Below are positions 1-22,165 of a stretch of 64,000 bases of DNA, in pieces; positions within the stretch are counted from its first letter, which is position 1, and every line of letters starts with the position of its first letter. A model generated the notes under the pieces. The model was not told the origin of the DNA, made no database searches, and worked only from the letters and a program-made list of their open reading frames with translations. Position numbers and translations under genes: made by a program. Source of the stretch: an uncultured candidate division Zixibacteria bacterium (GTDB lineage: Bacteria > Zixibacteria > MSB-5A5 > GN15 > FEB-12); assembly GCA_963806185.1 (NCBI GenBank), contig CAWDXE010000001.1:928001-992000 (forward strand), read 5' to 3'.

Positions 1-1928
1 TTTTCTTGACTGGACAATCGTCTTCGTATCGCTCGATCCTGATGATCCTCTCGGTGGAGGCCGGACGCAGGGTAATGCGGAGTGTGGCCGATTTTCTGGC
101 GGCGGGACGGTCGGCCGGGCGGTACGTGCTCTGTGTCGCCAGTGGCGCCGCCGGAATCGGCGCGATCACCGTGGTCGGCAATCTGGAGATGAATCTGATC
201 GCCGGTTTCTCCCTCACCTGGTGGGGAATGACCACGGCGCTGGTCGTGCTCATTATCACAGTGTCGGGCTGGGTCATCTATCGTTTCCGGGAGACGCGAT
301 CGCTGACACTGGCGCAGTATTTCGAGGTCCGCTACAGCCGAGAGTTCCGCATTTTCACCGGCATCATCGCCTTTCTGTCGGGCATCGTGAATTTCGGCAT
401 CTTCCCGGCGGTCGAGGCGAGATTTTTCATCTACTTCTGCGGCATACCGGAGAGCTTCTCGGTATTCGGGCTGAACGTCGCCACCTTCCCGGTCATGATG
501 CTATTCCTGCTGGGCATATCGCTCTACTTCGTGCTTGGCGGCGGGCAGGTGTCGGTGATCTACGCCGATTTCTTCCAGGGGATACTGGTGTACGGCGTGT
601 TCGTCATCCTGATCGTCTATTTCTTCTTCACCTTCGACTGGGGTCATATCGAGACAGACACTCATGCAGGCGCCGCAGAATGCGTCGCTGATAAATCCGT
701 TCAAGACCAGCCAGGTGGAGGATTTCAATTTCTGGTATTTCCTGGTGGGTATTGTCGGCGTGATTTACGGCACGATGTCCTGGCAGGGGACGCAGGCGTA
801 CAACTCGTCGGCCAAAAGCGCGCACGAGGCCAAGATGGCCAGCGTGCTGACCGCCTGGCGCAACCTGCCGATGAACATCATGTTCCTGTTCGTTCCGATT
901 ATTGCCTACACGGTGCTCAACCATCCCGACTTCTCCGGCATCGCCAATTCAGTCGGCGGGCACGCTGTCGAGGATCGACGGGAAGGCGGTGCAAAGTCAA
1001 TTGAAAGTACCGCTGGTGCTGACCCATATTCTCCCACGCGGATTGATCGGCGCCTTTGCGGCGATGATGCTGGCCGCCAGTATCAGCACGCTCGACGCCT
1101 ACATGCATTCGTGGGGAAGTATCATCGTGCAGGATGTCATTATCCCAATTCGCAGGAAGCCGTTCGAGCCGAAGCAGCATCTTCGCGTGCTGCGCTGGGC
1201 GATTACTCTTCGTCGGCGTGTTCGCTTTCTTCTTCAGCCTGATCTTCAAGCAAAGCGAATACATCTTTCTGTTCTTCGCCATCACCGGCGCCATTTTTGC
1301 CGGCGGTTCCGGAGCGGTGATTATCGGCGGTCTGTACTGGAAACGTGGCACCACGGCGGCGGCGTGGGCGGCGATGATCACCGGCTCGGGGATTGCCGTC
1401 GCGGGGATCATCATTCATCAGATCATTCCGGATTTCTTTATCAACGGTCAGTGGTTCTGGGGAATCAGCATGGCTGGGGCAACGATTGTGTACTGTTGTT
1501 CTCGCTGTTTGGCAAACGCGAGGACTTTGATCTCGATAAGCTGTTGCACCGGGGGAAGTATGCGATTGCCGGCGAGACGAGTGTGGTCGAAGCTGCACCC
1601 TCGAAAGGCTGGAAGATGCTCGGCATGGGCAAGGAGTTTACGCGCGGCGACAAGATCATTTACATCTGCAACTACGTCTGGACCGGCGCCTGGTTGCTCA
1701 TATTTGCGGTCGGCACGATTTACAATCTGACGCACGACGTCGACGATCTCGCCTGGTCACAGTTTCTGGCGAATCTATCTTGCGATTCACATTGTTCTAT
1801 CGGCTGTAATCATCATCTGGTTTGTCATTGGTGGTTTCCGCGATCTTCGCCGCATGAATCACAGCCTGAGTACCGCCACACGCGATCACCGGGACGATGG
1901 CTTTGTCACTCAGAAAGATCATTCGTGA
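1..1928 (+). CDS. Sodium:solute symporter (SSS) family transporter; 5'-partial and broken by about six single-base frameshifts
   Basis: Consecutive frames give FLDWTIVFVSL / ILMILSVEAGRRVMRSVADFLAAGR...TLAQYFEVRY / MQAPQNASLINPF / LPRGLIGAFAAMMLAASIST / GGLYWKRGTTAAAW / FDLDKLLHRGKY / WFVIGGFRDLRRM...RDDGFV, ending at TGA 1926-1928. Shifts lie near 35, 655, 955, 1205, 1495 and 1765. Confidence 0.85.
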
Positions 1929-4900
1929 ATCAGAAAGAAATCGCACTGAATATTCGGCGAATCGAGCAGTTCTATAATCGAATGTTGCCGCTGATTCTGG
2001 CGGAGACCGCGCCGCTCGAAGCGGTGTACGCCTGCACGGCCGAACCTGTTCCGTTTGCGGAGCGGCTAAAACTTGAGTACAAACCGATTCGACCCGGTGA
2101 GGTGTGGGGACATTTCTGGGAGAGCGGCTGGTTCCGATTGAATGGCACCGTGCCGAGTTCCTGGCGCGGCAAGCCGCTCGTGGCGCATCTCGATCTCGGC
2201 GGCGAGGCGTTGGTGTTTCGTCCCGACGGATTCATCATGCAAGGGGTCACCAACGGGTCAGTATTCGATACCGAATTTGGGCGCGACATTGTGCGGCTTT
2301 CTGATTCGTGCGCCGGTGGGGAGAAGATAGAACTCTGGGTCGAAGGGGCAGCCAATGCGCTGTTCGGGATGTTCTGCGATCTCGATCCCGGCCCGCAATC
2401 GACCAATCGGTACGGCTACTATGACGCCAAGGCCAATTCGCTCAAGCTGGCGGTGTTTGACACCGAAATGTGGCAGCTGACTCTTGACCTCAAAGTTCTT
2501 ATCGGCCTGATCAAGACCTTGCCGGAAGCAAGTGTGCGCCGGGCGAGAATCATTCGAGCTGCATGCGAGGCGATCAATGCGTACGCCAAGAGCAATGGTG
2601 ATGCGGCCGCCTGCCGGGCATTGCTCAAGAAGGAACTGACGAAGCCGGCGGAGGCATCATCACTCTCGGTATTGGCAGTCGGCCATGCACATATCGATAC
2701 CGCCTGGCTGTGGCCGGTCCGGGAGTCGATTCGCAAGTGCGCCCGAACCTTCTCCACCCAGCTCGATTTGATTGACCGGTATCCTGATTACGTCTTCGGC
2801 GCGTCGCAGGCTCAGCATTATGCCTTCGTGAAGCAATATTATCCCGGTTTGTATGATCGGATCAAGGCTGCCGTCAAGGCCGGACGATGGGAGATACAGG
2901 GAGGCATGTGGGTGGAGGCGGACTGCAATGTTACCAGCGGCGAGTCGCTGGTGCGGCAGATTCTCCACGGCAAGAACTTCTTTCGCGATGAATTTGGCGT
3001 TGATGTGGACAATCTCTGGCTGCCTGATGTCTTCGGGTACTCGGCCGCGCTGCCGCAGATACTGCAAAAGAGCGGCATACGGTATTTTCTGACCCAGAAG
3101 TTATCCTGGAGCCAGTTCAATGACTTTCCTCATCATACATTTCATTGGGAGGGGATTGACGGTACGCGCGTGTTGACGCATTTCCCTCCGGAAGACACCT
3201 ACAACAGTCAGTTGTGGCCGGAATCGCTAGTGCCGGCGCAGGCACGCTTTCATGAACGAGACTACATCGACGAATTTATTTCCTTATTTGGCGTTGGCGA
3301 CGGCGGCGGCGGACCCAAGGCTGAACATATCGAAATCGGACGCCGTCAGGCGAATCTCGAGGGTGCGCCGCGCGTTAGATTCGGCACGGCGAAGGAATTC
3401 TTCCACAATCTCGACCAACACAAAGACAAACTGCCCACATGGGTAGGCGAATTATATTTGGAGCTTCATCGCGGTACGCTCACTACGCAGGCGTTTGTGA
3501 AGTGGGCCAATCGCCGATTCGAACAGAAGCTGAGAGTAGTTGAAATGCTCTGGTCATGCTTGCCGTACGACAAGTACCCTCAGAGTGAAATTGACAGCGT
3601 ATGGAAACTTCTTCTGTTGAATCAATTCCACGACATCATTCCGGGGTCGAGTATTTCTCAGGTCTACCGACTGGCGCGAACTCAATACCTGGCGGAGCTG
3701 AAGAAGTGTGATGAGCTCGTTCTGCGGGCGGCGGGGCAGATGTTCAAACGCGAAGCTGACGCCGTGACACTTTTCAATCCACATCATCACCCATATGTTG
3801 AACCAGTCCGCCTGCCGGACGCCTGGCAAGGAAGTTCTGTGATCGGCCAAGCAGGCAGGCCTCTCCCCTGCCAGAACGAATCAGGGCAGGTCGTGGCTCT
3901 GGTCGATATCCCCCCATACTCCTTTGTCACTCTGCGCAAGGGGGCCCCAGTGGCGACGCCACACGAGCAGCCATCGCTGGTGCTCGAAAACGACCGGGTC
4001 AGATATGAATTCAGTGATCAGGGAACGTTATTGTGCTGCTTCGATAAGGATGCGCAGATTGAAATCGTCGCGCCCGATAAACCGGGAAATCTCCTAACGC
4101 TTTATGATGATCATCCGAATGACTGGGATGCCTGGGATGTCGATGCCTTCTATCGGGAAACACCGATTGAGAACGCGCGGATCACATCAGTTGAATACTT
4201 GTCAGCCGGAGAGGTGCGTCAGGGGGTCAAGTTCAGTTTTGCGATCGGTCAATCGACGATCGAGCAGCGGGTATACCTGGGGGCAAAATCGAAGCGCCTC
4301 GACTTCGAGACGACAGTTGACTGGCGGGAGAAACATCGCATGCTGCGCGTGGCGTTTCCCGTGACGGTGCGCGCCGAACAGGCAACGTTTGATATTCAAT
4401 ACGGTTACCTGAAGCGAGCCACACACGAAAACACGTCGTGGGAGAAAGCCAAATTCGAGGTACCGGCCCATCGGTACGCCGATCTTTCGATCGCCGATCA
4501 TGGGGTCGCCTTGCTGAACGACAGCAAGTACGGGTACAAAGTCGAAAACGGCTTGCTTGATCTGAATCTTCTCCGTTCACCCAATTACCCCGACCCTGAC
4601 GCCGATCAAGGTGAGCATCACTTTGTCTACAGCCTGCTGCCGCACACCGGCGACCTGATCCATTCCGATGTGATGGCGGAGGCGGCCAAGGTGAACCAGC
4701 CGGTCGTGATCGTTGACGGGTATGCGGCAGAATCAAACACGACGCCGGTACGCCTGACGGGGCACGGACTCTCGATGGAAGTTCTCAAAAAGGCGGAGAG
4801 AGAATCGTGTTGGATCGTGCGCGTGGTCGAGACGCTGGGCTGTACCTCCCACGGTACGATCGATATCGCCATCAATGGCGCAACGCTTCAGGAGACCGAT

Positions 4901-5011
4901 CTCATGGAATGGACCGACGGAACGACGACGCCAGTCACCGGTCCGATGGCGCTGGTCCTAAGACCGTTCGAGATTCGCACTTACAGGATACGGACAGGAG
5001 TAGCCAAGTGA
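1925..5011 (+). CDS. Alpha-mannosidase, glycoside hydrolase family 38
   Basis: Motifs GHAHIDTAWLWP, WLPDVFGYS, GVGDGGGGP, ELYLELHRGT and NQFHDIIPGS. The GTG start overlaps the upstream stop (GTGA). No signal peptide. The ORF-track start at 902 is an artefact of the frameshifted symporter. Confidence 0.95.
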   Translation: MNQKEIALNIRRIEQFYNRMLPLILAETAPLEAVYACTAEPVPFAERLKLEYKPIRPGEVWGHFWESGWFRLNGTVPSSWRGKPLVAHLDLGGEALVFRPDGFIMQGVTNGSVFDTEFGRDIVRLSDSCAGGEKIELWVEGAANALFGMFCDLDPGPQSTNRYGYYDAKANSLKLAVFDTEMWQLTLDLKVLIGLIKTLPEASVRRARIIRAACEAINAYAKSNGDAAACRALLKKELTKPAEASSLSVLAVGHAHIDTAWLWPVRESIRKCARTFSTQLDLIDRYPDYVFGASQAQHYAFVKQYYPGLYDRIKAAVKAGRWEIQGGMWVEADCNVTSGESLVRQILHGKNFFRDEFGVDVDNLWLPDVFGYSAALPQILQKSGIRYFLTQKLSWSQFNDFPHHTFHWEGIDGTRVLTHFPPEDTYNSQLWPESLVPAQARFHERDYIDEFISLFGVGDGGGGPKAEHIEIGRRQANLEGAPRVRFGTAKEFFHNLDQHKDKLPTWVGELYLELHRGTLTTQAFVKWANRRFEQKLRVVEMLWSCLPYDKYPQSEIDSVWKLLLLNQFHDIIPGSSISQVYRLARTQYLAELKKCDELVLRAAGQMFKREADAVTLFNPHHHPYVEPVRLPDAWQGSSVIGQAGRPLPCQNESGQVVALVDIPPYSFVTLRKGAPVATPHEQPSLVLENDRVRYEFSDQGTLLCCFDKDAQIEIVAPDKPGNLLTLYDDHPNDWDAWDVDAFYRETPIENARITSVEYLSAGEVRQGVKFSFAIGQSTIEQRVYLGAKSKRLDFETTVDWREKHRMLRVAFPVTVRAEQATFDIQYGYLKRATHENTSWEKAKFEVPAHRYADLSIADHGVALLNDSKYGYKVENGLLDLNLLRSPNYPDPDADQGEHHFVYSLLPHTGDLIHSDVMAEAAKVNQPVVIVDGYAAESNTTPVRLTGHGLSMEVLKKAERESCWIVRVVETLGCTSHGTIDIAINGATLQETDLMEWTDGTTTPVTGPMALVLRPFEIRTYRIRTGVAK

Positions 5012-6024
5012 CACGGATCGGCCTGCTCTTTTGGCTTTCGGTAGCTGTGATTGTCAATTGCTGCTTTGCCTACTCAGCAGCGGGGCAGGCGTCAGGCCGG
5101 CTGACGCAGACAGTGATCGTCTTCGACTCCAATATGATTCACTTTGCCCCTGAAGACTCCACCCGGTACGACACCGATACAGTGAAGTCGTCGGATCGAG
5201 GGCGAGTCATCAACCGGACGGTGACACTTCCCCACTTTGCGACGCCGGTACGGGTCGCCGGGCACTTGATCATCAGGCCGACCCCAAAAGACGAGTTGGA
5301 GATGTACGACCGGTGGGACCGGGCCGGCAATGTGCGTCTGGCGGTAGAAGGCGGTCCCGATCTGGAACTCATCAAGTTCATGACCGCGTACGGCGGACGG
5401 ACTGAATACGATGTGGATCTCTCACCTCTTGCTGCGCTTTTGCAGGGTGAATGCAACATCAGGGCGTTTATTGACACGTGGGTGACGCCGGCCTGGACGA
5501 TTGATTTCTCACTGACGTATGCAAGTGATTCGACCGCGAACAATGCCGATTGGGTAACGAGTGTGCTGTTTGAAGAATCGTACACGCGTGAGTCGCCGGG
5601 GGACTTGGGAAAGGAAGTTCCAGTCGAGGTACCGGCTGAACTTCGGCGAGTTGTGCTTCGCTATTATGTCAGCGGGCATTGCACTGACGGTACGGGGGCG
5701 GATGAATTCGAGCGGAAAGATAATGTCATCTCCGTCGACGGCGTGGTGGTGTATCGGTTTCAACCATGGCGTGACGACTGCAGGCAGTTTCGGGCAATCA
5801 ATCCGTATTGTCGTCGCTGGACCGACGGCTCCTGGTCGTGTGACTACAGTCGAAGCGGCTGGTGTCCCGGGGACCTGGTCAAGCCGGTGGAGCTTGATTT
5901 GACTGACCATCTGACACCGGGCCGGCACACGATTCACTTGGTAGTTGAGAACGTCCGCCCAACGGATGACAAGGGGAATTTCGGGTACTGGCGTAATTCA
6001 ATCCAGCTACTGGGATACAAATAG
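5008..6024 (+). CDS. Peptide:N-glycosidase F (PNGase F)-like amidase, secreted
   Basis: Signal peptide, then motifs DRWDRAGNV, ELIKFMTAYG, FIDTW, GH...DEF, WRDDC...NP and SRSGWCPG. GTG start with AGGAG RBS overlaps the GH38 stop. Confidence 0.85.
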   Translation: MTRIGLLFWLSVAVIVNCCFAYSAAGQASGRLTQTVIVFDSNMIHFAPEDSTRYDTDTVKSSDRGRVINRTVTLPHFATPVRVAGHLIIRPTPKDELEMYDRWDRAGNVRLAVEGGPDLELIKFMTAYGGRTEYDVDLSPLAALLQGECNIRAFIDTWVTPAWTIDFSLTYASDSTANNADWVTSVLFEESYTRESPGDLGKEVPVEVPAELRRVVLRYYVSGHCTDGTGADEFERKDNVISVDGVVVYRFQPWRDDCRQFRAINPYCRRWTDGSWSCDYSRSGWCPGDLVKPVELDLTDHLTPGRHTIHLVVENVRPTDDKGNFGYWRNSIQLLGYK

Positions 6025-6030
6025 AAGCCA

Positions 6031-7536
6031 ATGAACTACAGCATTGCTCTCATACCGCAACCGGTGGAGTTGCGTACCACCGACCAGAAGTTGCAGCTGG
6101 CCGACCGGGCGCCGCTTTATGTTATGGGCGGCCCTCATGCAGATGACATGGCTGAGTACTTGTGCGACGAATTGGCGCACTATGGCCTGAGCTTGCTGCC
6201 GCGAGAAGATTCGATCGATGGACCAGGCGTGTCGATATCGCTCGTCGATGAGGAATCGCTGGTCGAGAACGGCGCCTATCGCCTCTGGGTCGGCGAGGAG
6301 GGTGCGACCATTGTGGCGGGGACAGCGGCCGGAATATTCTACGGGATACAGACATTTCTCCAGTTGCTACCGGTCTCCGGAAGCCACTCTGGCACTGCCA
6401 CTATTCCAGGCGTTGAGATTGTCGATTTTCCGCGGTATCGCTGGCGCGGCATGCATCTTGATGTCAGCAGACATTTCTTCCCCGTCGCCTTCGTGAAACG
6501 ATACATCGATCTCCTCGCCCGTCACAAGATGAACGTGTTTCACTGGCACCTTACTGACGATCAGGGGTGGCGGATCGAGATCGAGAAATATCCCCGACTC
6601 ACTTCCGTCGGAGCCTGGCGCAAGGAAGCGGACGGTACGATATGCGGTGGTTTCTACACGCAGGAAGAGGTACGCGACGTGGTGGCGTACGCCGCACGTC
6701 GAGCCGTAATGATTGTACCTGAAATTGAGATGCCCGGCCACGCGCGAGCGGCGCTGGCGGCCTATCCGGAATTCTCCTGCACCGGCGGCCCACATCACGT
6801 GGCAACTGAGTGGGGGGTGTTTGATGACGTGTTTTGTGCCGGGAATGAACGCACCTATCTCTTTCTTCGAGATATTCTCTCCGAAGTGGCGGCATTGTTT
6901 CCCGGGCCGTACATACATATCGGCGGTGACGAATGCCCGCACGTCCGATGGCAGGGACACAGCCTATGCGCTGAATTTGCGAGTATCCTCAGGCTGGCCA
7001 GTGTGGACGAATTGCAGAGCACATTCATCGCACGCCTCGCTCGGGACCTACTGCATCTGAACAAGCAACTGATCGGCTGGGACGAGATTCTCGATGGTGG
7101 TGCGCCGGAGGGTGCTACCGTGATGGCATGGCGGGGTGCAGAAAAAGGGGTGGTTGCCGCGGCGCTGGGGCACGACGTTGTCATGACACCGATGTCACAC
7201 TGTTATTTCGATCATTATCAGGGAAAAGAGAATGAGCCGAAGGCGATCGGCGGCTTTACTCCGCTGGAGAAGGTGTATGCCTTTGAGCCAATGCCGAAGG
7301 GACTGGTCCCGGAACTGCAGCCTCGCATACTCGGCGCTCAGGGAAATGTCTGGACGGAGTATATGAACGATGAGCTTCATGTCGAGTACATGGTCTTTCC
7401 CCGCCTCTGCGCGCTCGCGGAAGTGCTGTGGTCGCCGGAAGACGGGCGAGTATACGAGCAATTCCATCGGCGCCTGGGAGTACATCTAAAGCGACTGGAT
7501 CGGCTGGGTGTGCATTACCGGCCGTTGGATCACTGA
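6031..7536 (+). CDS. Beta-N-acetylhexosaminidase, GH20
   Basis: Motifs DFPRYRWRGMHLDVSRHF, HWHLTDDQGWR, PEIEMPGH, catalytic HIGGDE and WTEY. No signal peptide. Confidence 0.95.
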   Translation: MNYSIALIPQPVELRTTDQKLQLADRAPLYVMGGPHADDMAEYLCDELAHYGLSLLPREDSIDGPGVSISLVDEESLVENGAYRLWVGEEGATIVAGTAAGIFYGIQTFLQLLPVSGSHSGTATIPGVEIVDFPRYRWRGMHLDVSRHFFPVAFVKRYIDLLARHKMNVFHWHLTDDQGWRIEIEKYPRLTSVGAWRKEADGTICGGFYTQEEVRDVVAYAARRAVMIVPEIEMPGHARAALAAYPEFSCTGGPHHVATEWGVFDDVFCAGNERTYLFLRDILSEVAALFPGPYIHIGGDECPHVRWQGHSLCAEFASILRLASVDELQSTFIARLARDLLHLNKQLIGWDEILDGGAPEGATVMAWRGAEKGVVAAALGHDVVMTPMSHCYFDHYQGKENEPKAIGGFTPLEKVYAFEPMPKGLVPELQPRILGAQGNVWTEYMNDELHVEYMVFPRLCALAEVLWSPEDGRVYEQFHRRLGVHLKRLDRLGVHYRPLDH

Positions 7537-7599
7537 TTGCCGAACCGGCACAATTGCCCTATCTTCCACTATCAGCCGCCAGAAAGAGAGATTGCCTTT

Positions 7600-8850
7600 A
7601 TGCTGCTAGATTTCAGCAAAGCCTTGGCATGCGCGTTTTTGGTGATGGCCATTGGAGTGCCCTCGCCGTCTCATGCCGAGTCAGATGTTGCGAACAGTCA
7701 CGAGGAAGATTTCATCGATGCACCATCCGTGGTGTGGAAATTTGCGGCCGGTGCGCCCATTTTTTCCTCCCCGGTAATCAGTGATTCGCTCGTGTTTTTT
7801 GGCACGCTCAACGGCAATCTTCATGCCATCGAAATACGGACCGGCAGATTGACCTGGACCTATGCGACCAAAGGAGAGATTCGGTCAACGGTCTGTCTGA
7901 GCGGCGATACGCTCTATCTGATAAGTGGTGATGGGATGCTGCATGCAATTGACAGAAATTCCGGAAATTCGCTATGGCATTTTGCCACCAAAGGCGAAAA
8001 GAAGCAGGATTTTGCGGATTACTACCAATCATCGCCGGTGGTATTTGATGGTATCGTGTATTTCGGGTCGGGCGACGGCGGCGTATACGCCGTTAGAGCT
8101 TCTGATGGCAGCGAGGTCTGGCACTTTGCAACCGAGGGTGTAGTTCATGCGACACCTGCGGTGGTTAGCGATCGGGTGTTCGTGGGATCATTCGACGGGT
8201 ACTTCTATTCGCTGGACCGGACCACGGGAGAATTGATCTGGAAATTCAAGTCCGTTGGCCATCGCTACTTTCCCAGGGGAGCGTTTTCCGGTGCACCGGT
8301 AGTCGCCGACGGAGTAGTGATTGTCGGCGCTCGAGATTATAACCTCTATGCGCTTGATCGGGACTCCGGACATTGCCTTTGGAACAAGGCCTATTCTCGC
8401 GGCTGGGCGTTACCGAATACGGTCAGAGACAGCATTCTCTACACTGGCACGTCGGATGACCGGATACTGGTCGCATCGGACCTGGCCACGGGTCGCGAAT
8501 ACTGGCGCACAAATCTTGGTTTCAATATCTTCGGCGGTATGGCGATGAGCCGGTCGATGGGTTACGTGGGTACGCTCATGGGAAAGTTGCACGCGGTAGA
8601 CCTGAACACGGGCAGGATCGTCTGGACAGTGGCCATGGACGGGTATCAGAAGAATCATCTCAAGTATTTCAAGCCGGACGATTCATTTCGGGATGACATA
8701 TTCGAGATCGTCAAGTCGGATGAGGCGTTTATCGACGTCGAATACGATCTCGGAGCGATCTACTCGACACCGCTCATAACCGGAGACCTACTCATCGTGA
8801 CAAGCACTGACGGCAATGTGTACTGCTATCGCCGGCAGCAATCAGAATGA
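7600..8850 (+). CDS. PQQ-binding-like (BamB-type) beta-propeller repeat protein, secreted
   Basis: Signal peptide plus repeated SSPVV...VYFGS.DG..YA.D...G...W.F blades. Confidence 0.85.
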   Translation: MLLDFSKALACAFLVMAIGVPSPSHAESDVANSHEEDFIDAPSVVWKFAAGAPIFSSPVISDSLVFFGTLNGNLHAIEIRTGRLTWTYATKGEIRSTVCLSGDTLYLISGDGMLHAIDRNSGNSLWHFATKGEKKQDFADYYQSSPVVFDGIVYFGSGDGGVYAVRASDGSEVWHFATEGVVHATPAVVSDRVFVGSFDGYFYSLDRTTGELIWKFKSVGHRYFPRGAFSGAPVVADGVVIVGARDYNLYALDRDSGHCLWNKAYSRGWALPNTVRDSILYTGTSDDRILVASDLATGREYWRTNLGFNIFGGMAMSRSMGYVGTLMGKLHAVDLNTGRIVWTVAMDGYQKNHLKYFKPDDSFRDDIFEIVKSDEAFIDVEYDLGAIYSTPLITGDLLIVTSTDGNVYCYRRQQSE

Positions 8851-8905
8851 GGGGATCGTTCGACACCTTGGGATACCGGATCTGAGGCAGGATCGGCGAC
8901 CGATT

Positions 8906-11545
8906 TCACTTGCCGACAGTCAGGATGCCGCGCAAGCGAATGTCCTTTGATGAAGCGCCGATCATGATCGTAAAGTCACCCGGTTCGACAACGGTGTGTA
9001 GATTCTTATCCAACATCGACAGCATGGCCGGAGTGACGGCAAATTGTACGACCTGCGTTTCCCCCGGCAGCAAATGAACACGCTTGAACCCCTTGAGTTC
9101 TGTTATGGGACGGGCAACTGAGGCGAATTGATCTCGGATATATAGTTGCACAACCTCGTCTCCGGCCACAACCCCAGAGTTTTTCACCCGGCAGGTAACA
9201 ACGCCTGAGTCCGTCGGCGAAATCCGGTTATCATCCAATGACAGGTCAGTGTATTCGAAAGTTGCGTAGCTCAAGCCGTAGCCGAACGGAAATAGTGGTT
9301 GACCGGTAAGGTCGGCATAGTCATCTCCCCGGCCGGTCGGCTTATGATTGTAGACAAGCGGTAGTTGTCCTTCCGCCACCGGGAAGGTGATCGGCAAACG
9401 CCCGGCTGGAGAGTAATCACCAAATAGGATATCGGCGACCGCGTCGCCCCCCGCCTCGCCGGGGTACCAGACATCAAGGACGGCAGAAACATCGGCCAGC
9501 CAGGAATTCATAGTGATCGCGCTGCCGCCCACGAGGACGACGACAACCGGCTTTCCTGTGGCGGCCACACGCTTGATCAACTCCTCCTGACGACCGGGCA
9601 AGGCGAGGTTGGCGCGATCGCGAAACTCACCCTCCTCGATTCCCACCACGACAATCGCAACATCACTCCGAGCCGCAAGAGCCACCGCTTCAGCCATAGC
9701 GGAATCGGATTGTGGGGGAAGACCGGCATCCCACACGAGTCGAAACCAGGCGTTGCCGAAAGGTTCGAAGAACTCGATGCGAATGTCGTATAGCCTCTCC
9801 TTCTCGAAGCGATAGTCGGTGACCAGCGTGCGTCGGCTGATCTTGTGCCAGTTGTCGATGAGGAGTGAGTCGTTAAGGTAGAGCCGGTAGCCATCGTTAC
9901 CGTCGATGCCAATCTTGTAGACACCGGTGCCCGGACCCCTGAGTTTTCCCGTCCAGCGAACGGAATAGAAATCATACGGCAGCTTGGCGGGGTCCGGCGA
10001 GAAGAGGGTCCATTGAAATTGAACTTGCCGATCCACTCGACTGAGGACCGGGGTTCCGCTCAGTGCGACATTAGCGAAATACGACCCGACCAGACCGGTC
10101 TGTACAGTGTCATGCAACGTACAAGAAAGGTAGTCGGCTGCGACAGTGCCGTAGTCAGCCTCGACTCTTGGGCACCCCTTGGCATACTGCACGTTGGCCG
10201 AGGTGCCCACTTTCTTACGGATGCCGTCGAGTATACTCACCGGGTTGTTCCCCGGCCCGCTGTAACCGCCCAACCGCACTTCGGATGCATCCGGACCAAG
10301 CACGGCGATTGATTTCAATTTCTTGCTGAATGGAAGCGTCTTGTAATCGTTCTTCAGGAGTACGGTAGACTCCAGAGACGCCTTGAGCGCCAGTTGTCGA
10401 GGTGAGACATCAGAGTCATCCGGCTTATCCGAAGTATTCAGGCCATACGGATTCTCAAACAATCCCAGCTCGAACTTGGCTCGCAACACTCGAGCGACGG
10501 CGCTATCGATCATATCACCGGGAATCCGTCCGTCCAGAAATGGCGGACTGAAAAGCGAGAAATGGTCAAACGAGGTCTGGAAGATGACGTCGAGCCCACC
10601 CTTGAGGGCCAGCTCGCCGGATTCCGCATAATCTTTCGACGTGAAATGAAGAACGTTGGCGCCGCCCACCGCGCCGGCGTCGGAAATAATGAAGCCGGCA
10701 AAGCCGAGTTCCTTTTTCAAGAGCGTTGTGTTGAGCCACTCATTGGCCGAACAGGGAGTGCCGTCATACGAATTGTAGGATGTCATCAGCGAACGCGACC
10801 CGCCGCGGGTGATGCAGTCAACAAACGGCGGTATATGAATTTCGCGAAGAAGGCGTTCGCTATACTGAATCGGATAGCTGTCGCGACCGCCGTCGCCGAC
10901 ATTGGCGATGAAGTGCTTCGGCGTCGTGATAACGCCGCGTTTTTCGAACTCCGATACAAACGCCACGCCCATCGCGGAGGTCAAAAAGGGATCTTCGCCG
11001 TAGGTCTCCTCCACCCGGCCCCAGCGGACGTCGCCGGCGATGTTCACGACAGGCGACAGAACCTGCCGGATACCGCGACTGCGGCAGTCGCGAGCGATGA
11101 CCGCTGACACCTGATGCATGAGCGATGTGTCGAATGTCGCCGCCAACGCAATCGCCTGGGGAAACGAGGTGGCACCTTTTTGTACTGCGCCGTGCAATGC
11201 CTCACAGAACGGAATTATTGGGATGCCGAGTCGGGTGCTGTCTACAAAGTGACGCTGGATGGCGTTGACGAGCGCGACGGTGAGCGCGCTATCATAGGAA
11301 GCGGGGATCTGAAAGCCAAACGCACCATCGCGATATTTGGCGGCACCGCTATCGAGATCGGCAGCCAGCATGAACAGTTGCCAGAATTTCTCCTCAGGCG
11401 TCATCCGCTTCAGCAGGTCCTGAACGCGTGGTTCGATCGGGAGGCGGGCATCTCTGTACGGCTGACCGCATACCGTTGCCGCCATAAGCAGCAGCAGGAA
11501 CAAACCAGCCATAATAGGCAACCGGTCAGTGCACGGAGATTTCAT
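8906..11545 (-). CDS. GH3 beta-glucosidase/beta-xylosidase with PA14 and Fn3-like domains, secreted
   Basis: Motifs RWGRVEETYGEDP, TPKHF, IISDAG, a PA14 insert (YSVRWTG...DGYRLYLN), PAGRLPITFP, PFGYGLSY and ELKGF. Signal peptide present. Confidence 0.93.
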   Translation of the reverse strand: MKSPCTDRLPIMAGLFLLLLMAATVCGQPYRDARLPIEPRVQDLLKRMTPEEKFWQLFMLAADLDSGAAKYRDGAFGFQIPASYDSALTVALVNAIQRHFVDSTRLGIPIIPFCEALHGAVQKGATSFPQAIALAATFDTSLMHQVSAVIARDCRSRGIRQVLSPVVNIAGDVRWGRVEETYGEDPFLTSAMGVAFVSEFEKRGVITTPKHFIANVGDGGRDSYPIQYSERLLREIHIPPFVDCITRGGSRSLMTSYNSYDGTPCSANEWLNTTLLKKELGFAGFIISDAGAVGGANVLHFTSKDYAESGELALKGGLDVIFQTSFDHFSLFSPPFLDGRIPGDMIDSAVARVLRAKFELGLFENPYGLNTSDKPDDSDVSPRQLALKASLESTVLLKNDYKTLPFSKKLKSIAVLGPDASEVRLGGYSGPGNNPVSILDGIRKKVGTSANVQYAKGCPRVEADYGTVAADYLSCTLHDTVQTGLVGSYFANVALSGTPVLSRVDRQVQFQWTLFSPDPAKLPYDFYSVRWTGKLRGPGTGVYKIGIDGNDGYRLYLNDSLLIDNWHKISRRTLVTDYRFEKERLYDIRIEFFEPFGNAWFRLVWDAGLPPQSDSAMAEAVALAARSDVAIVVVGIEEGEFRDRANLALPGRQEELIKRVAATGKPVVVVLVGGSAITMNSWLADVSAVLDVWYPGEAGGDAVADILFGDYSPAGRLPITFPVAEGQLPLVYNHKPTGRGDDYADLTGQPLFPFGYGLSYATFEYTDLSLDDNRISPTDSGVVTCRVKNSGVVAGDEVVQLYIRDQFASVARPITELKGFKRVHLLPGETQVVQFAVTPAMLSMLDKNLHTVVEPGDFTIMIGASSKDIRLRGILTVGK

Positions 11546-13772
11546 CGATGAATATCCACGCCTTTCCACCTGACCCCTTATGCCAGGTTGGGCAAGTTTC
11601 CATGTTATCCGCGCTCACGCGAACATAGCGCGCCTCGGTCGGCGGAAACGTGACATCGAATGGAGCTATGATGGCGCCGTCCTTGTCCGCCGGCGTTACG
11701 TTGGCGACACTACCAACTGTGCGATAGGCCTTTCCGTCAGTAGAAAGCGAGAAAGTCACGGTGAGGGGCATGAAGACCCAGGAATTGATGTCCTGCAGGA
11801 AATCGGTGTTGATCGCGGAGATCGTCTGAACGGAACCCAGATCGATAGTGGCCTGCATATCCTCGCCCTCGAAACCGAGCCAGTGGGCGTGATAGTCACC
11901 CCACCCCTTCATACCGTCGACCAGAGCGGTGGCGTCACCGCCATGGTATTTCTTGCTTGCGGGCGGTTCCAATGTGATCGTCTTGCGACGAGCGAGGTGA
12001 TTGACAGTACCTTCCTCAAAGAATGCAGATGTTGAGGCAAGGTACTCATCGGGTGAGATACCGCTCTCCCAAAGTCTGGGAACGCCAGCCGCCTTGCAGC
12101 GCTGGACGAAGAGCTTCAGCAGCTCGGAAATCTCCGGTCGGACGGTCAGTTGGCCGTTGTCATTCACGGCGAAACAGCCGCGGTCTCCCGTGCCGCCCAC
12201 TTTGGCCTGCTCGAGGACGGCATATTGCAGGGGAAGTCGGCAGGTCCGCACGCGGGCCAGCACCGCGGAGTCGTTTCGAACCGCATCCTCGGCCCGGTCG
12301 AACAGCGCACCATACGTATCGAGCATCGCCGGAGACAGATACCCGTGTTCGGACACCAGCGGATAACCGTAAATATCGAGGTTTTCGCCGGAGGCAACCA
12401 GCGCGGCATGCATGGTGTCAATATACTGCCTGATATGCGGAGCGGCGTCGCCGTAGAAGCCGTGCAGGAAGTCGTTCATGACGGAATCGACGTTGAGATT
12501 CGGATTCCACAGCAACTTGGCGATCAGGTAGATGCGTAGTTCGGCAAATTCGCCGTACATCTGGCCGAGACCCTGCTCGAAGACGGTGGCTATCCCGTTG
12601 TTTACAAAGAACTGTATGTTGGGTTGGAGGACATGGAGGTTCGGGAACGGGCTCATCAAGTTGCGAAATTGAATGACATAATCCCATAGAAAGATATTGT
12701 GCGTCAGGCTGCTCCAGTCGCGGACATCCTTCACAAACGAAGTACTGCTCGGATCCTCAGCGAGAGGTTTGCTCCGATTGCACTCGATACTGCACAGCAT
12801 GATGTTGACGTTCGGTCGCGGTTTCAGGTGCTTCGGCGCGGAACGGGAATACTGGTAGGCCAGCGTGGATATGGTCTTATCCGGGAATTCGTCGGCGACG
12901 CGATTGACGAAAGCGAGAAGTGATCCGGAGGGGGAGCCCTCGACACTTTCAATCGCCCGACAGGCGGCGCATTCGCATGGGACATACGTGTCATTCTGTG
13001 AGACGGACCAGAAGGTCGCTTCCGGTTTGGCGGCCATGAGGGTACGGAGACGGTCGACGACGATACGAAAGACATCCGGGTTAGTCAGGCACAACTGACC
13101 GCGCGGAGTCCGGTTACCGTTGAGCAGCGAGAAATACTCAGGGTGTGACGAGAAGAAAGAGTCCGGCGGAACGAGGGTTTTGAAGGTGTGCACAAACAGG
13201 CCGAATTCATTATGGGTGTCAAGCTTGTGCCAGGCGACATACGATGAATCGTGGATATCCTGCATACGAAAGATGATGGCGGGAATTTGGGTGTCATCAC
13301 CAAGCAGGAGCTCAATCGTCGTAGTGTGCGGTATTACACGGACCCATTGGCTGTACATCCGACAGTTGAGGTAGGATTCAAGAAACGTGTAGACGCCGTT
13401 CTGCAGACCGCGATCGGTATGTCCGGTCAAGTAGATACGCTTTGGCTCGATGCTGATCCGGAAGCCGTCTTCGCCGAGTTGAGAAGTCACCAATTTGGGG
13501 TCATGACTCTCGCCCACCGCAAGTATGATCTGCCGGCCACCTTTCGCAAGGGCATGGGTAATGGGCAGCTCTGCGCCTGAGACACGAATAATGTAGGACT
13601 GCAACGTATCGGCTATGGCGGTCGTACTCGTGGAAGCTCCGTCCTTCACATAGATACTGAATCGGGAGTGTGAGTTTTTCACCAGCTCCATAGAGGTTGA
13701 GAAAGCCGTCGGCACAACCGTCAGCCAGAACAACGTGACGGTGAGGGCAACTTTCATGCGATGCAAGTTCAT
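11526..13772 (-). CDS. DUF4838 domain protein with GH67-N-like N-terminus and C-terminal F5/8 type C (discoidin) domain
   Basis: Motifs HPEYFSL...QLCLTNP, SQND..CECAAC, TLAYQY, WDY and KLLWNP, with C-terminal IDLG...ARYVRV...FIDEI. ATG overlaps the fucosidase stop. Confidence 0.8.
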   Translation of the reverse strand: MNLHRMKVALTVTLFWLTVVPTAFSTSMELVKNSHSRFSIYVKDGASTSTTAIADTLQSYIIRVSGAELPITHALAKGGRQIILAVGESHDPKLVTSQLGEDGFRISIEPKRIYLTGHTDRGLQNGVYTFLESYLNCRMYSQWVRVIPHTTTIELLLGDDTQIPAIIFRMQDIHDSSYVAWHKLDTHNEFGLFVHTFKTLVPPDSFFSSHPEYFSLLNGNRTPRGQLCLTNPDVFRIVVDRLRTLMAAKPEATFWSVSQNDTYVPCECAACRAIESVEGSPSGSLLAFVNRVADEFPDKTISTLAYQYSRSAPKHLKPRPNVNIMLCSIECNRSKPLAEDPSSTSFVKDVRDWSSLTHNIFLWDYVIQFRNLMSPFPNLHVLQPNIQFFVNNGIATVFEQGLGQMYGEFAELRIYLIAKLLWNPNLNVDSVMNDFLHGFYGDAAPHIRQYIDTMHAALVASGENLDIYGYPLVSEHGYLSPAMLDTYGALFDRAEDAVRNDSAVLARVRTCRLPLQYAVLEQAKVGGTGDRGCFAVNDNGQLTVRPEISELLKLFVQRCKAAGVPRLWESGISPDEYLASTSAFFEEGTVNHLARRKTITLEPPASKKYHGGDATALVDGMKGWGDYHAHWLGFEGEDMQATIDLGSVQTISAINTDFLQDINSWVFMPLTVTFSLSTDGKAYRTVGSVANVTPADKDGAIIAPFDVTFPPTEARYVRVSADNMETCPTWHKGSGGKAWIFIDEISVH

Positions 13773-15205
13773 GGTTGGCCCGGCGTGAAATGAAAGGCCC
13801 AGGCGTAGCGGCAAGGCGGATTGCTGCGGAGGGATTCCGGAATCTTAATCACGCAGCCGCCGGCAACGTTCTCCCACGTAAGCGGTTCGTTGACACCGAG
13901 CATGGTGACTGCGCTGCCTGCTTCCGGGGCAAAGGCTCTGATTTCGACAGTGGCAGGCATTGTAGTTTCACCGTCATCGGCAAGATATATGGCGTTGATC
14001 GAGTGATCGGGCAGGCGTGTGTAACAGACCTTCCCTTCCTTGTACGGCGCAACCGCGCGGCTGTAGTAGAGCGCGCTCCCGTTGATCTTCATCCACGCAC
14101 CGAGGTCCTTCAGGCGGAGCAATGATTCCGGCGGCAGTTCACCCTCGGGGCTGGGGCCGATATTCAGCAGCAGATTGCCGCCTTTGGCGACAATATCGAC
14201 CAGGAGATGAATCAGTTTGGCGGTTGGCTTGTAGGTATCGGTCGAGACATAGCTCCAGGAGGTGGCCATGGTCATGCAGGTTTCCCAGACGTAACTGAGC
14301 GCCGTGTCGGGGATTTCCTGTTCGGGCGTGCGATAGTTCTGGTACCGTCCTTCGACGGCGCGATCGACGATGATCAGTCCGGGCTGAAGTTCGCGCGCCA
14401 TGGCGGCAATACGCGGCATGTCGATATTCTGATCGCACGGGTTCTTCCCCCAGCGCGGCGACGTCGGGGTCATCGGCTGTACCCAGCCGCCGTCGAGCCA
14501 GAGGATGTCGACACTGCCGTAGTTGGTCATCAACTCCTTGATCTGGTTGGTCGTGAACGTTTTGAACGCCTCCCACCTTTGCGGATATCTTTGCATATCG
14601 TAGTTGACGTTACGGTCAAACGGCGGAAAGTAGGGACACCAGTAGTCGGGGCAGTGCCAGTCCGCCTTGGAAAAATAGGCGCCGATGCCAAAACCTTGTG
14701 TGCGAAACGACTTGAATATCTCGGCGGCAATATTGCTCTTCGGATTGGTGCTGAACGGACATGCTGGGTCGGTCACTTTGTAGTCGGTCTCTTTCGTGTC
14801 GAACATGCAGAAACCGTCGTGGTGCTTGGTCGTGAAGATGACATACTTCATCCCGGCCTCCTTGGCGGCGGCCGCCCAGGAGTCGGGGTCGAATCTGGTC
14901 GGATTAAAGGTCGTTTTCAGATTCTCATACGCCGTCTTGTAGGCAAAGTAATCCTTCGCAAACGGCCCCCGACGTTCGCACCAGTTTTCGTCTTCGGGAC
15001 AGAGGCTCCAGCTCTCGACAATCTGCCACTGACTATAGGTGCCCCAGTGCATGAGAAGACCGAATTTCATGTCCTGGAACCACTCCAGCTTTTTGAGCAC
15101 AAGCGGGTCGGTTTCCTTGTCGGTGGCGGCCTCCGGTTGTGCGAGACAGGCTGCGCCGAGGAGTAGGCAAGCAAGACAACCGATGAGAACACGAGCATTG
15201 AGCAT
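13769..15205 (-). CDS. Alpha-L-fucosidase, GH29, secreted
   Basis: Motifs KFGLLMHWG, TTKHHDGF, nucleophile region LWLDG, WETCMTM and GGNLLLNIGP. Signal peptide present. Confidence 0.95.
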   Translation of the reverse strand: MLNARVLIGCLACLLLGAACLAQPEAATDKETDPLVLKKLEWFQDMKFGLLMHWGTYSQWQIVESWSLCPEDENWCERRGPFAKDYFAYKTAYENLKTTFNPTRFDPDSWAAAAKEAGMKYVIFTTKHHDGFCMFDTKETDYKVTDPACPFSTNPKSNIAAEIFKSFRTQGFGIGAYFSKADWHCPDYWCPYFPPFDRNVNYDMQRYPQRWEAFKTFTTNQIKELMTNYGSVDILWLDGGWVQPMTPTSPRWGKNPCDQNIDMPRIAAMARELQPGLIIVDRAVEGRYQNYRTPEQEIPDTALSYVWETCMTMATSWSYVSTDTYKPTAKLIHLLVDIVAKGGNLLLNIGPSPEGELPPESLLRLKDLGAWMKINGSALYYSRAVAPYKEGKVCYTRLPDHSINAIYLADDGETTMPATVEIRAFAPEAGSAVTMLGVNEPLTWENVAGGCVIKIPESLRSNPPCRYAWAFHFTPGQP

Positions 15206-15422
15206 TGGACGAGAATCTGATTTATCGAACACGCTGACCTCCAACGATGCTGTTAGCAATCATCCAAGGATAAGCAGGACGATTGCCGATAGGCAAGGCT
15301 CAGTTTGTGAGTTTTCCGGCCACCCGACCCAGAGCCGCCAGTCGTACCCTTGCAAAACCGGGTCGATAGGGCTAGATTGACTATATACGGTTAGACAATT
15401 GAGCGAAGGGGTGACTACGATT

Positions 15423-16892
15423 ATGCGCCGGTTATGGTTTTCAGTAATCTTGATCCTCGCGTGCTTTGCGTTAACTCTCCGCGCTACGGCCGTCACGACG
15501 CCCGAAAGCGGATGCTACGCGATTGTGGTCGGCCAGGACGTATCCGTCACAGGTTCTGTGCTGATGGCCCACAATGAGGATGACTATGGTCCGCAAATTG
15601 TCAATCACCGTTGGGTACCTCGTACTTCCCACGGCGCGGATGAGGTCATTCGTGTCAACGGCGGTCTGACCATTCCACAGGTTTCCGAAACGTGGGGGTA
15701 TGTCTGGTCGGAAATTCCGGGTATGCTTTTCTCCGACAGCTACATTAATGAGAAGGGGGTTGGCGTCTGCTCGGATGCTTGCAGTTCACGTGAAGACCGG
15801 TCGGACCTGACCGGCGGCGGAATCGATTACATGCTTCGCCGAATTGTCGCGGAGCGGGCGTCTTCTTCGCGCGAAGGTGTGCACCTGGCGGGCGAGTTGG
15901 TCGAGCGATTTGGGTACACCGGATCGGGAAGGACGTATGTGATTTGTGATCCCAATGAAGGTTGGCTGTTTTGCGTCGTTATGGGGAGACATTGGGTGGC
16001 CGAGCGAGTGCCCGATAGTCAAGTGGCGATAATAGCCAACACATACACCGTGCAGACAGTTGATCTTGCCGACACGGTCAATTTCCTCGGCTCAGCAGAT
16101 CTGATCGATTATGCGATGGCGCGAGGGTGGTACAATCCGAAGACTTCTGGTTCCTTCAGTTTTGCCAAAGTGTATGCCGAACCGGGCGTCGCGGCTGATT
16201 CGAGCAACATAGTCCGGCAATGGAACGGGTATCGCATGATTCTGGCGGAGCCGCCGGATATCACCAAGCCCCTTCCCTTTTCAGGCAGACCATCGCGCAA
16301 AATCGGCGTGCGAGACATCCTGCCGGTCTTGCGCAGTCATTTTGAGCAGACGCCGATGTATGCCGAGGATTCCGCAACCAGTTGTCCTCACGCCAACAGA
16401 ATCTCTCCTACGTGCAATCAGATGACACAAACCAGCTTTGTCGCGGAATTGAGAAGTGAGACGGCGGACGGTATCGGGTCGGCGTACTGGGTGTGCCTGT
16501 CGGCGCCATGTCTATCCTGTTACGTTCCCTTCTATGTTGGATCATCTGACTTTCCGGCCGCATACACGGGTGAGAGTGTTACACCGACTGAAGAGTATTT
16601 CCACGCGCGGTTGGCGCAGCCATTTGCCGTGGATGATTCGAGCGCCTTTTGGACGTTTTCGAACATGCGATATCTGGTCGAACAGGAATACGGCCGTAAG
16701 GCAGACGTGCTCCGCACGGTTCTTGAACTGGTGGAAGCCGAGTCACTTGGTGAGCAGGGTGAGGTTGAGTCAGAAGCCCAACGGTTGATGATCACTGATC
16801 CGGATGGAGCGCGGCGAATTCTCAGTGAGTATTCAGGCACCATATATCAGGCGGCGATCAGTGCGCTGGCGCAATTTCAACCTAAGAAGTAG
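15423..16892 (+). CDS. C69 family dipeptidase (Ntn-hydrolase), secreted
   Basis: Signal peptide, then CYAIVVG...MAHNED, INEKGV and ERASSSREGV. Confidence 0.88.
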   Translation: MRRLWFSVILILACFALTLRATAVTTPESGCYAIVVGQDVSVTGSVLMAHNEDDYGPQIVNHRWVPRTSHGADEVIRVNGGLTIPQVSETWGYVWSEIPGMLFSDSYINEKGVGVCSDACSSREDRSDLTGGGIDYMLRRIVAERASSSREGVHLAGELVERFGYTGSGRTYVICDPNEGWLFCVVMGRHWVAERVPDSQVAIIANTYTVQTVDLADTVNFLGSADLIDYAMARGWYNPKTSGSFSFAKVYAEPGVAADSSNIVRQWNGYRMILAEPPDITKPLPFSGRPSRKIGVRDILPVLRSHFEQTPMYAEDSATSCPHANRISPTCNQMTQTSFVAELRSETADGIGSAYWVCLSAPCLSCYVPFYVGSSDFPAAYTGESVTPTEEYFHARLAQPFAVDDSSAFWTFSNMRYLVEQEYGRKADVLRTVLELVEAESLGEQGEVESEAQRLMITDPDGARRILSEYSGTIYQAAISALAQFQPKK

Positions 16893-17729: not shown

Positions 17730-18515
17730 TCACCCACGATCCGACAGTCGCTCCTTTGGAAGTCGACCCAGTAGCTGCAGCAGGCCGTCGAGAATCGTAA
17801 TCGGATGAGGAGGGCAACCGGGGATGAACAGATCAACCGGCAACGTTCTGGAGACACCGTTGTGCACCTGCTGATGGTCGATATATGGTCCGCCGGAGAT
17901 AGCGCAGGCGCCGACAGCGATCACGATCTTTGGGTCGGGCACTGCGTCATATGTCTTTTGGAGAGCCAGAAGCATGTTCTCGGTCACCGGACCGGTGATT
18001 AATAGGCCATCGGCGTGCCGCGGTGATGCGACCAACTGAATGCCGAAGCGGCCGAGGTCAAAGACAATCGTTCCGAGGACATTGACCTCAACTTCGCACC
18101 CGTTGCACCCACCGGCGCTCACCTGGCGCAGTCTCAGGGATCGCTTGAACAGGCGGAGAGTTTCATCGTTAAGTTTCTGAACCAACGCCCGTTCCGAGCC
18201 GTGCGCGACGATCAGGTCGGACCGCACGCTCGTCGCCAGGTGGTAGTCATCCGAGAAGTGAATCAGATCGGATGGACAAGCTTGCTCGCATTCTCCGCAA
18301 AACAGGCACCGTCCGAGATCGATTGCCGGATGGCGATCGACGAGCGAAATAGCCGAGGTCGGGCAGGCCGCCACACAATCAGAACATCCGCTGCCACAAG
18401 GGTCGGAGCTGATAATCGGACGTCCCTCAAATCGATCTGGCAAGTTTGGCGATTCATCGGGAAAGCCGATCGTGCGGTTACCGAATTTGGCGCGAGCGAG
18501 TAATGCTTTCAACAT
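17730..18515 (-). CDS. hyfI: Ehr/hydrogenase-4 small subunit (HyfI/NuoB-like) with fused N-terminal 2x[4Fe-4S] ferredoxin
   Basis: Ferredoxin motifs C.DCVAACP and CLFCGECEQACP, then GGCNGCE, SPRHAD, GACA and PGCPP. Confidence 0.9.
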   Translation of the reverse strand: MLKALLARAKFGNRTIGFPDESPNLPDRFEGRPIISSDPCGSGCSDCVAACPTSAISLVDRHPAIDLGRCLFCGECEQACPSDLIHFSDDYHLATSVRSDLIVAHGSERALVQKLNDETLRLFKRSLRLRQVSAGGCNGCEVEVNVLGTIVFDLGRFGIQLVASPRHADGLLITGPVTENMLLALQKTYDAVPDPKIVIAVGACAISGGPYIDHQQVHNGVSRTLPVDLFIPGCPPHPITILDGLLQLLGRLPKERLSDRG

Positions 18516-18524
18516 AATGACACT

Positions 18525-22161: not shown

Positions 22162-22165
22162 AACA

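Follow-up and report, generated by a model that had tools for sequence, protein, structure and literature searches.

The left edge of a 64,000-nucleotide stretch of zixibacterial DNA (G000:C1:928001-992000; hereafter, the window) carries a set of genes that likely serves to scavenge eukaryotic N-glycans in two compartments. Unprefixed positions refer to the window. G000 is the source genome (82% complete, 8 contigs), other G-numbers denote genomes of the phylum, and L-numbers denote locus stretches in the synteny sets described below. Gene content, synteny, the kept catalytic residues, and the shared pattern of hydrophobic N-termini are observations; what the proteins do, where they reside, which species is transported, and in which order the steps run are deduced from them. 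The hub of the system is a unit encoding a sodium:solute symporter (SSS), a CBM9-like protein, and a phosphorylase of glycoside hydrolase (GH) family 130. It is not the PNGase, around which a first-pass annotation of the window had taken the locus to be built, since the unit occurs without the PNGase and the PNGase is rare in loci collected with the SSS. The N-glycan catabolism and the import through the SSS that this annotation proposed are supported.

In the pathway that we propose, proteolysis would be followed by entry of glycopeptides through the outer membrane. An optional exported module, GH29-DUF4838-GH3, could strip fucose, N-acetylglucosamine/N-acetyllactosamine (GlcNAc/LacNAc) antennae, and xylose to leave an importable core from complex glycans, while a predicted periplasmic amidase of the PNGase F type would free the glycan from the imported glycopeptides. 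An exported CBM9-like protein, usually encoded right before the SSS, likely captures the freed glycan, and the SSS likely mediates sodium-coupled import of the mannose-chitobiose core. In the cytoplasm, a predicted GH38 would take off the alpha-mannoses, a predicted GH130 would phosphorolyze Man-beta-1,4-GlcNAc to Man-1-phosphate, and a predicted GH20 would split the chitobiose.

A conserved SSS-CBM9-GH130 hub

Relatives were compared in two sets. The first was collected with the PNGase and comprises the best 80 of 146 genome loci; the second was collected with the SSS and comprises the best 80 of 509 metagenome matches, many of them on short contigs. An SSS gene is present in 35 of the 80 PNGase loci, where it is accompanied by genes for CBM9 (31), GH130 (29), GH38 (34), and GH20 (13). 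The conserved synteny that the first-pass annotation had proposed to look for exists, as SSS, CBM9, GH130, and a GH38 occur together in 28/80 of these loci. Two orders recur: GH130-CBM9-SSS-GH38-PNGase-GH20, which is that of the operon studied here (its two first genes lie just outside the window), and CBM9-SSS-PNGase-GH130-GH38, in which the GH38 belongs to a different clade. Among the SSS-anchored loci, CBM9 and GH130 are each found in 44/80, with GH94 (13), GH125 (10), GH92 (6), and a ROK regulator (6) as recurrent extras. Moreover, GH84 may stand in for GH20, and GH99, GH94, GH125, GH92, NagB, and an asparaginase-2 protein are also swapped in; all of these fit the same N-glycan substrate.

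As the first-pass annotation stated, the locus differs from SusC/D loci that rely on GH18 and GH92. Searches of five genomes (G000, G009, G012, G027, and G052) gave no SusD, GH18, GH85, or GH92, and with no SusD in 5/5 genomes there is no adjacent SusC/D pair. The region left of the window, to which that annotation had pointed as a place to look for a TonB-dependent receptor or a SusC/D pair, has neither; instead, carA/carB are followed by the GH130 and CBM9-like genes. Six matches to TonB-dependent transporters (TBDTs) were found in G000, all elsewhere, the nearest ~59 kb past the C69 gene. Cross-phylum transfer, considered for loci labeled Ignavibacteriales, was rejected, as these loci coincide with same-family genomes.

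Among the variants, a GH99 endo-mannosidase gene lies between CBM9 and SSS at L099:2993-4867, L106:872-2746, and L018:2699-4342. In L099 and L106, the GH99 is fused to CBM9, and both loci carry GH84 instead of GH20. L109:5645-13382 and L102 each have a PNGase homolog together with an asparaginase-2 family protein, a ROK regulator, and a GH94 phosphorylase.

Locus layout and predicted export

A Pfam scan assigned all nine genes of the first-read locus to families and confirmed the gene order, families, and strands that had been claimed (Table 1). This inventory of nine genes stands, whereas GH130, the CBM9-like gene, the GH163-like layout of the DUF4838 protein, and six frameshifts in the SSS gene had been missed. 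The SSS start overlaps the CBM9-like stop, and the plus-strand genes overlap or lie almost end to end, with the sequence GTGA common to the SSS/GH38 and the GH38/PNGase junctions. GH29, DUF4838, and GH3 likewise overlap or nearly touch. A scan for promoters and terminators gave counts at chance level (9 versus 9.2; 21 versus 15.9), and atlas look-ups of the locus proteins returned nothing beyond the Pfam families already assigned.

Table 1. Genes in and directly left of the window that make up or adjoin the putative N-glycan locus
Product	Position	Strand	Basis
SSS, sodium:solute symporter (SSF); true start ~10 nt left of window	1..1928	+	Pfam
GH38 alpha-mannosidase, Ams1 / Bifidobacterium-type clade, predicted cytoplasmic	1925..5011	+	Pfam, PDB matches
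PNGase F-family amidase (PNGase F N/C), group 1 type, without N-terminal bowl domain, predicted exported	5008..6024	+	Pfam, alignments, model
GH20 beta-N-acetylhexosaminidase, HxGGDE motif, without signal-like N-terminus	6031..7536	+	Pfam, PDB, motif
PQQ/BamB-like beta-propeller, signal-like N-terminus	7600..8850	+	Pfam
GH3 with PA14 insert, predicted exported	8906..11545	-	Pfam, NCBIfam, PDB
DUF4838 + F5/8 protein, predicted exported	11526..13772	-	Pfam
GH29 alpha-L-fucosidase, predicted exported	13769..15205	-	Pfam, PDB, motifs
C69 dipeptidase-family protein, predicted exported	15423..16892	+	Pfam, NCBIfam
GH130 phosphorylase, one frameshift	C1:925921-926902, left of window		Pfam on intact ortholog, 59% identical
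CBM9-like protein, predicted exported	C1:926899-927993, left of window		Pfam

Signal peptides were judged by a hydrophobicity heuristic (best 11-residue Kyte-Doolittle mean within the first 40 amino acids). The maxima are 2.2-3.1 for PNGase, propeller, GH3, DUF4838, GH29, and C69 and low for GH38 (1.45) and GH20 (1.05), and the split that the first-pass annotation had drawn between these proteins holds by this measure. It is also conserved across orthologs. Hydrophobic N-termini are present in 75/80 PNGases, 31/32 CBM9-like proteins, 8/9 GH29, 7/10 DUF4838, and 5/8 GH3 proteins (the last two counts being depressed by windows that cut off the N-terminal segment) and are rare in GH38 (0/18), GH20 (1/18), and GH130 (2/30). 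This pattern suggests export of the former proteins and a cytoplasmic location of the latter.

A compact group 1 PNGase

The PNGase (338 amino acids) has both eight-stranded beta-sandwich domains (PF09112 and PF09113) by Pfam. Its structural model, with a predicted local distance difference test score (pLDDT) of 77.5, resembles 4R4X, 3KS7, 7ZGN, and 1PNF (query-normalized TM-score, TMq, 0.61-0.74) and matches the folds of PNGase F, PNGase F-II, BF0811, and 7ZGN. The active site of PNGase F aligns with WDR, Y128, FIDTW, GH, DEF, and RSGWCPG of the locus protein. D104, R105, D156, W158, H224, E233, R282, and W285 are kept in 80/80 PNGase loci, W103 in 78/80, and Y128 in 75/80. The reference sites in PNGase F are W59/D60/R61, Y85, E118, W120, H193, E206, and R248, where Asp60 and Glu206 are catalytic and are accompanied by Trp59, Arg61, Tyr85, Trp120, His193, and Arg248; the role of Glu118 is described in PMC9522356. 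On this basis, the catalytic set of PNGase F is complete in the locus PNGase, and amidase activity is predicted.

The Glu118 position is occupied by Asp156 in 80/80 relatives. This acidic residue and the lack of an N-terminal bowl domain place the protein in group 1 of the PNGases, that of PNGase F and BF0811. Such enzymes are blocked by core alpha-1,3-fucose, as the first-pass annotation had supposed. FIDTW lies opposite YIDTW in 3KS7 and TETW in 1PNF. In group 2 (PNGase F-II, 7ZGN), AFIGNY (4R4X) and AYIGNW (7ZGN) stand opposite this motif, and the locus PNGase does not belong to that group. The protein lacks the beta-twist insert seen in Bacteroides group 1 and represents a compact group 1 clade that is ~20-25% identical to the solved PNGases. 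BF0811, which is of the Asp type, frees high-mannose and complex glycans but fails on plant glycans, and Gly-type PNGases tolerate core alpha-1,3-fucose (PMC9522356). Because of the Asp at the Glu118 position, the prediction for the locus PNGase is that alpha-1,3-fucose on the core blocks it, so that plant glycans bearing this fucose would have to be defucosylated before it could act on them. However, a preprint (10.1101/2025.05.27.656428) describes some PNGases that take core alpha-1,3-fucose via an open site, and loop shape therefore matters too, beside the Glu118 position. Loops 228-233 and 254-285 of the PNGase model are of low confidence.

In the open-access literature, no paper joining Zixibacteria with PNGase was found. 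The source genome encodes a second, distant PNGase F-like protein (C7:173497-175437, equivalent to L145:2497-4437) of 647 amino acids, with a signal-like N-terminus and matches to PF09113 and a Por-secretion tail. Similar long forms in L030, L031, L032, and L139 possibly represent a secreted PNGase clade.

The putatively exported GH29-DUF4838-GH3 trio

Of 240 genomes of the phylum, 23 carry the SSS, 29 the PNGase, and 17 DUF4838. Fifteen of the 17 DUF4838 genomes carry the SSS, and in the other two (G106 and G123), the core is cut by contig ends. The trio converges on the core in G000, L039, L041, G123, G125, and G071, is divergent from it in L033 and L036, and runs in the same direction in G009, G027, G052, and L156; it is unlinked in G012 and G127. 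Because it adjoins the core in three different arrangements, the trio belongs to the system. The 23 SSS genomes comprise eight with the PNGase only, eight with both PNGase and trio, seven with the trio only, and none with neither (two-sided Fisher p 0.052, among kin that are not independent). This PNGase-or-trio pattern is suggestive only. Contig ends cut into two of the seven trio-only genomes (G071 and G150), the remaining five, which are firm, amount to about three lineages in a quick tree, and the metagenome locus L154 has a core with neither PNGase nor trio within 10 kb.

The solved structures closest to the GH3 are beta-xylosidases (7ZB3 and 8C7F), and its best NCBIfam match, betaxyl_Flavo, is under the cut-off. 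The GH29 is best matched in the PDB by 6GN6 (E 1e-58), and its linkage specificity is not predictable. The DUF4838 protein is predicted to be exported and, with its C-terminal F5/8 domain, has the same domain layout by Pfam as GH163 BT1035; DUF4838 also includes GH185, and the likeness to BT1035 is one of layout only. BT1035, the GH163 founder (endo-beta-N-acetylglucosaminidase), cuts GlcNAc-beta-1,2-Man (PMC10570127, PMC10154615). No full-length homolog of the DUF4838 protein was found in the PDB. Among 120 listed homologs, six have GH29 fused to DUF4838.

The CBM9-like protein and the cytoplasmic-type enzymes

The model of the CBM9-like protein (pLDDT 87.6) matches 4JPQ, 7NWN, and 1I82, which indicates the CBM9 beta-sandwich fold. 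In the CBM9 profile alignment, which covers the N-terminal half only, the first position of the Trp pair that we take to bind the reducing end in 1I82 has no Trp.

The best PDB matches of the GH38 are 7VQO, 7UFS, and 7UFR (E ~1e-161 to 1e-164), and it is nearest to Ams1 and to 7UFR/7UFS, its closest bacterial structures, which are presumably Bifidobacterium longum enzymes. Divergent GH38-like proteins recur in other loci (L044:1063-3486, L034:5729-9097, and L146:14503-17883), in a form of ~800 amino acids without and one of ~1125 amino acids with a signal-like N-terminus; the latter is a candidate for the exported alpha-mannosidase that is otherwise lacking. The GH20 is best matched by 6Q63 (E 7e-141).

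In the GH130, the equivalents of UhgbMP R59/Y103/D104/R150/D304 and the phosphate-binding Arg/His pair are present in all full-length rows of 38. The protein thus has the features of a beta-1,4-mannoside phosphorylase: the proton donor Asp, the Arg/His pair, the Tyr/Arg (Y/R) pair, and no signal peptide. The Y/R pair has been tied to beta-1,4-mannosides (PMC7660257), and the locus GH130 clade is predicted to phosphorolyze these. It falls outside the N-glycan subgroup of GH130 (UhgbMP/BT1033), with a distant match to 4UDG (E 2.6e-44) and differences in the His174 loop and at Lys208; the UhgbMP cluster was drawn with 63% identity edges (PMC7660257). At C1:443327-444220, the genome encodes a further GH130 paralog that shares 34% identity with the clade of the locus.

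Alternative readings

Several observations weigh against a system for N-glycan scavenging in two compartments. The PNGase is found in only 3/80 SSS-anchored loci, a set with many short contigs, and of the 47 PNGase loci with good flanks, 21 are orphans without any core gene. In at least five genomes, core and trio are present but there is no PNGase match, and GH18 and GH85 were not found in the three PNGase-less core genomes tested. The locus and its surroundings hold no TonB-dependent receptor, and TBDT homologs occur in only 2/80 loci of each synteny set. The GH130 is remote from characterized N-glycan enzymes (best PDB E 5e-56 and 3e-44), and its Lys208 equivalent is mostly Leu. NagA (TIGR00221) was not found in 5/5 genomes (the five listed above), although these encode putative GlcNAc-releasing enzymes, and the NagB family has a single match in G000, 23% identical to the L039 NagB, and none in the other four. 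Finally, the SSS gene is frameshifted in the source assembly. With no NagA and only one remote NagB-family match, the usual GlcNAc route was not found in the five genomes; GlcNAc may therefore enter envelope synthesis or an unrecognized, noncanonical route.

In PNGase-less genomes, the glycan must arrive free or be released by an unrecognized enzyme. As substitutes, GH18 and GH85 were rejected (not found in 5/5 genomes), and so was glycosylasparaginase: PF01112 proteins in G009 and G052 are unlinked, ~315 amino acids long, and without a signal-like start, and G027 has none. It is conceivable, although we consider it doubtful, that the SSS and CBM9-like protein constitute a new binding-protein-assisted secondary importer of intact N-glycan cores in several uncultured diderm phyla, and that the DUF4838 clade is a new glycan-releasing endo-hexosaminidase able to replace the PNGase, which the PNGase-or-trio pattern would fit.

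The first-pass annotation favored a route for plant complex N-glycans, in which the exported GH29 and GH3 take core fucose and xylose off the glycopeptide and unblock the group 1 PNGase. That an Asp118-type PNGase would require defucosylation beforehand, that the GH3 is nearest to beta-xylosidases, and that the trio is linked to the core are consistent with this route, and GH29 and GH3 work on plant N-glycans in Bacteroides massiliensis (PMC9522356). However, the plant-glycan beta-1,2-xylosidase and the core fucosidase that have been characterized depend on prior action of an exported alpha-1,3-mannosidase (GH92) (PMC9522356), and none was found here. Moreover, the eight SSS genomes with PNGase but without DUF4838, the GH99 in three loci, which points to high-mannose substrates, the relatives with core and trio but no PNGase, and the missing NagA all argue against it. 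Although elements of the route stand, plant glycans as the main substrate are unproven, and a pathway devoted mainly to them appears rather unlikely. Oligosaccharides other than N-glycans (beta-mannan or fucosylated xyloglucan fragments) could also be the substrates of core and trio, with the PNGase as a late passenger. The GH130 Y/R pair also suits beta-1,4-mannan, GH3 and GH29 are broad families, and the PNGase is often an orphan and often missing from core loci. Nevertheless, the recurring partners are alpha-mannosidases (GH38, GH92, GH125, and GH99) and GlcNAc enzymes (GH20, GH84, NagB, and GH94), no mannanase or xyloglucanase is among the recurrent neighbor clusters scanned, and two distinct gene orders place the PNGase within the operon, which together make such substrates very improbable.

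The frameshifts raise a separate question. The six in the SSS gene lie near 41, 657, 958, 1214, 1498, and 1763, and relatives have one intact open reading frame of ~640-700 amino acids at this place. If the SSS and GH130 genes are pseudogenes, the system would be decaying in the source strain, and the clustering of six frameshifts within 1.9 kb, while the following 15 kb of genes are intact, could be read in this way. However, between the breaks, the SSS has zero in-frame stops, 85-88% identity to five intact orthologs, and ratios of nonsynonymous to synonymous substitution (dN/dS) of 0.05-0.08, similar to those among intact SSS pairs (0.04-0.10). Moreover, 22 of 157 genome-wide test alignments split over frames, as in an error-prone assembly; three of them are of the locus SSS and one is of the adjacent carB. 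The SSS frameshifts are probably assembly errors, and decay of the system has a slim chance. Very recent inactivation of the SSS in the source strain is a less likely cause.

Neighboring genes

The propeller, counted as a member of the locus by the first-pass annotation, has no ortholog beside other core loci; orthologs occur in six other genomes, one of them with an SSS ~40 kb apart. It is a lineage-specific insertion outside the conserved system. The C69 protein had been cast as the user of the released peptide. The gene is present as described, but it adjoins the core in only 1/80 PNGase loci (L052) and 1/80 SSS loci (L156), and orthologs are found in 22/240 genomes, with none of the other 21 next to the core. 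Its assigned role is thus weak, and C69 is an occasional neighbor only.

Farther along the window (17730-25053) are genes resembling those of a hydrogenase-4-like membrane complex, named from their sequences. A similar cluster accompanies GH29-DUF4838-GH3 in G106 (L146), where an OPT oligopeptide transporter separates the two. About 35 kb left of the window, at C1:891000-897000 (L149, L002), a second GH38 adjoins sugar ABC transporter genes. L001:46-2496 encodes an exported protein of 816 amino acids that carries thrombospondin type 3 repeats and ends in a dockerin-like tail.

Relation to known N-glycan systems

The plant pathway of B. massiliensis (PNGase B035DRAFT_03341, GH92, GH3, and GH29; PMC9522356) likewise combines a PNGase with a signal peptide, a GH3 xylosidase, and a GH29 fucosidase, and some Bacteroides PNGase loci have a GH130 nearby, as here (PMC9522356). 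However, the PNGase of B. massiliensis is of group 2 (Gly pocket, usually with a bowl domain), whereas the zixibacterial enzyme is of group 1 (Asp, no bowl), and SusC/D and GH92 stand where this locus has the SSS, the CBM9-like protein, and a cytoplasmic-type GH38. The complex N-glycan system of Bacteroides thetaiotaomicron (GH163 BT1035, GH130 BT1033, and GH20 BT0459) also includes DUF4838+F5/8, GH130, and GH20 proteins. Release there is by GH18, whereas the zixibacterial system would use the PNGase, with no SusD or GH92 found and trimming of alpha-mannose predicted in the cytoplasm. The high-mannose loci of B. longum and Streptococcus (GH85 or GH18, GH38, and GH125) likewise place an intracellular GH38 after oligosaccharide import. 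These monoderms release the glycan with an endoglycosidase and import it by an ABC transporter, whereas the zixibacterial system, found in a diderm, would combine a sodium symporter with an amidase. Xanthomonas campestris has a GH3, presumably NixI, in its nix cluster. This cluster (NixD TBDT, NixE-L, and AspG; PMC4173781) likewise groups a fucosidase and a hexosaminidase for N-glycans. However, the TonB-dependent transporter stands at the head of nix, NixF and a beta-mannosidase take part in it, and PNGase, SSS, and GH130 are not mentioned in the accessible portions of the reports on it (PMC4173781, PMC5700972, PMC10154630).

No description of this arrangement, which lacks the usual SusC/D importer, was found in listings of the open-access literature, subscription papers not being covered. 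Nearly all of the enzyme families are known; what we have not found in print is their SusC/D-free arrangement in uncultured diderms. Each family being already known, the surprise is moderate. The system offers as candidates for study a compact group 1 PNGase clade, an uncharacterized clade of GH130, DUF4838 proteins of a clade linked with GH29, and a CBM9-like protein for which a ligand is predicted. Moreover, it points to N-glycan uptake independent of SusC/D and suggests, as a specific proposal open to test, that a minority of Zixibacteria (23/240 genomes) and other uncultured diderms use eukaryotic N-glycans as a carbon source.

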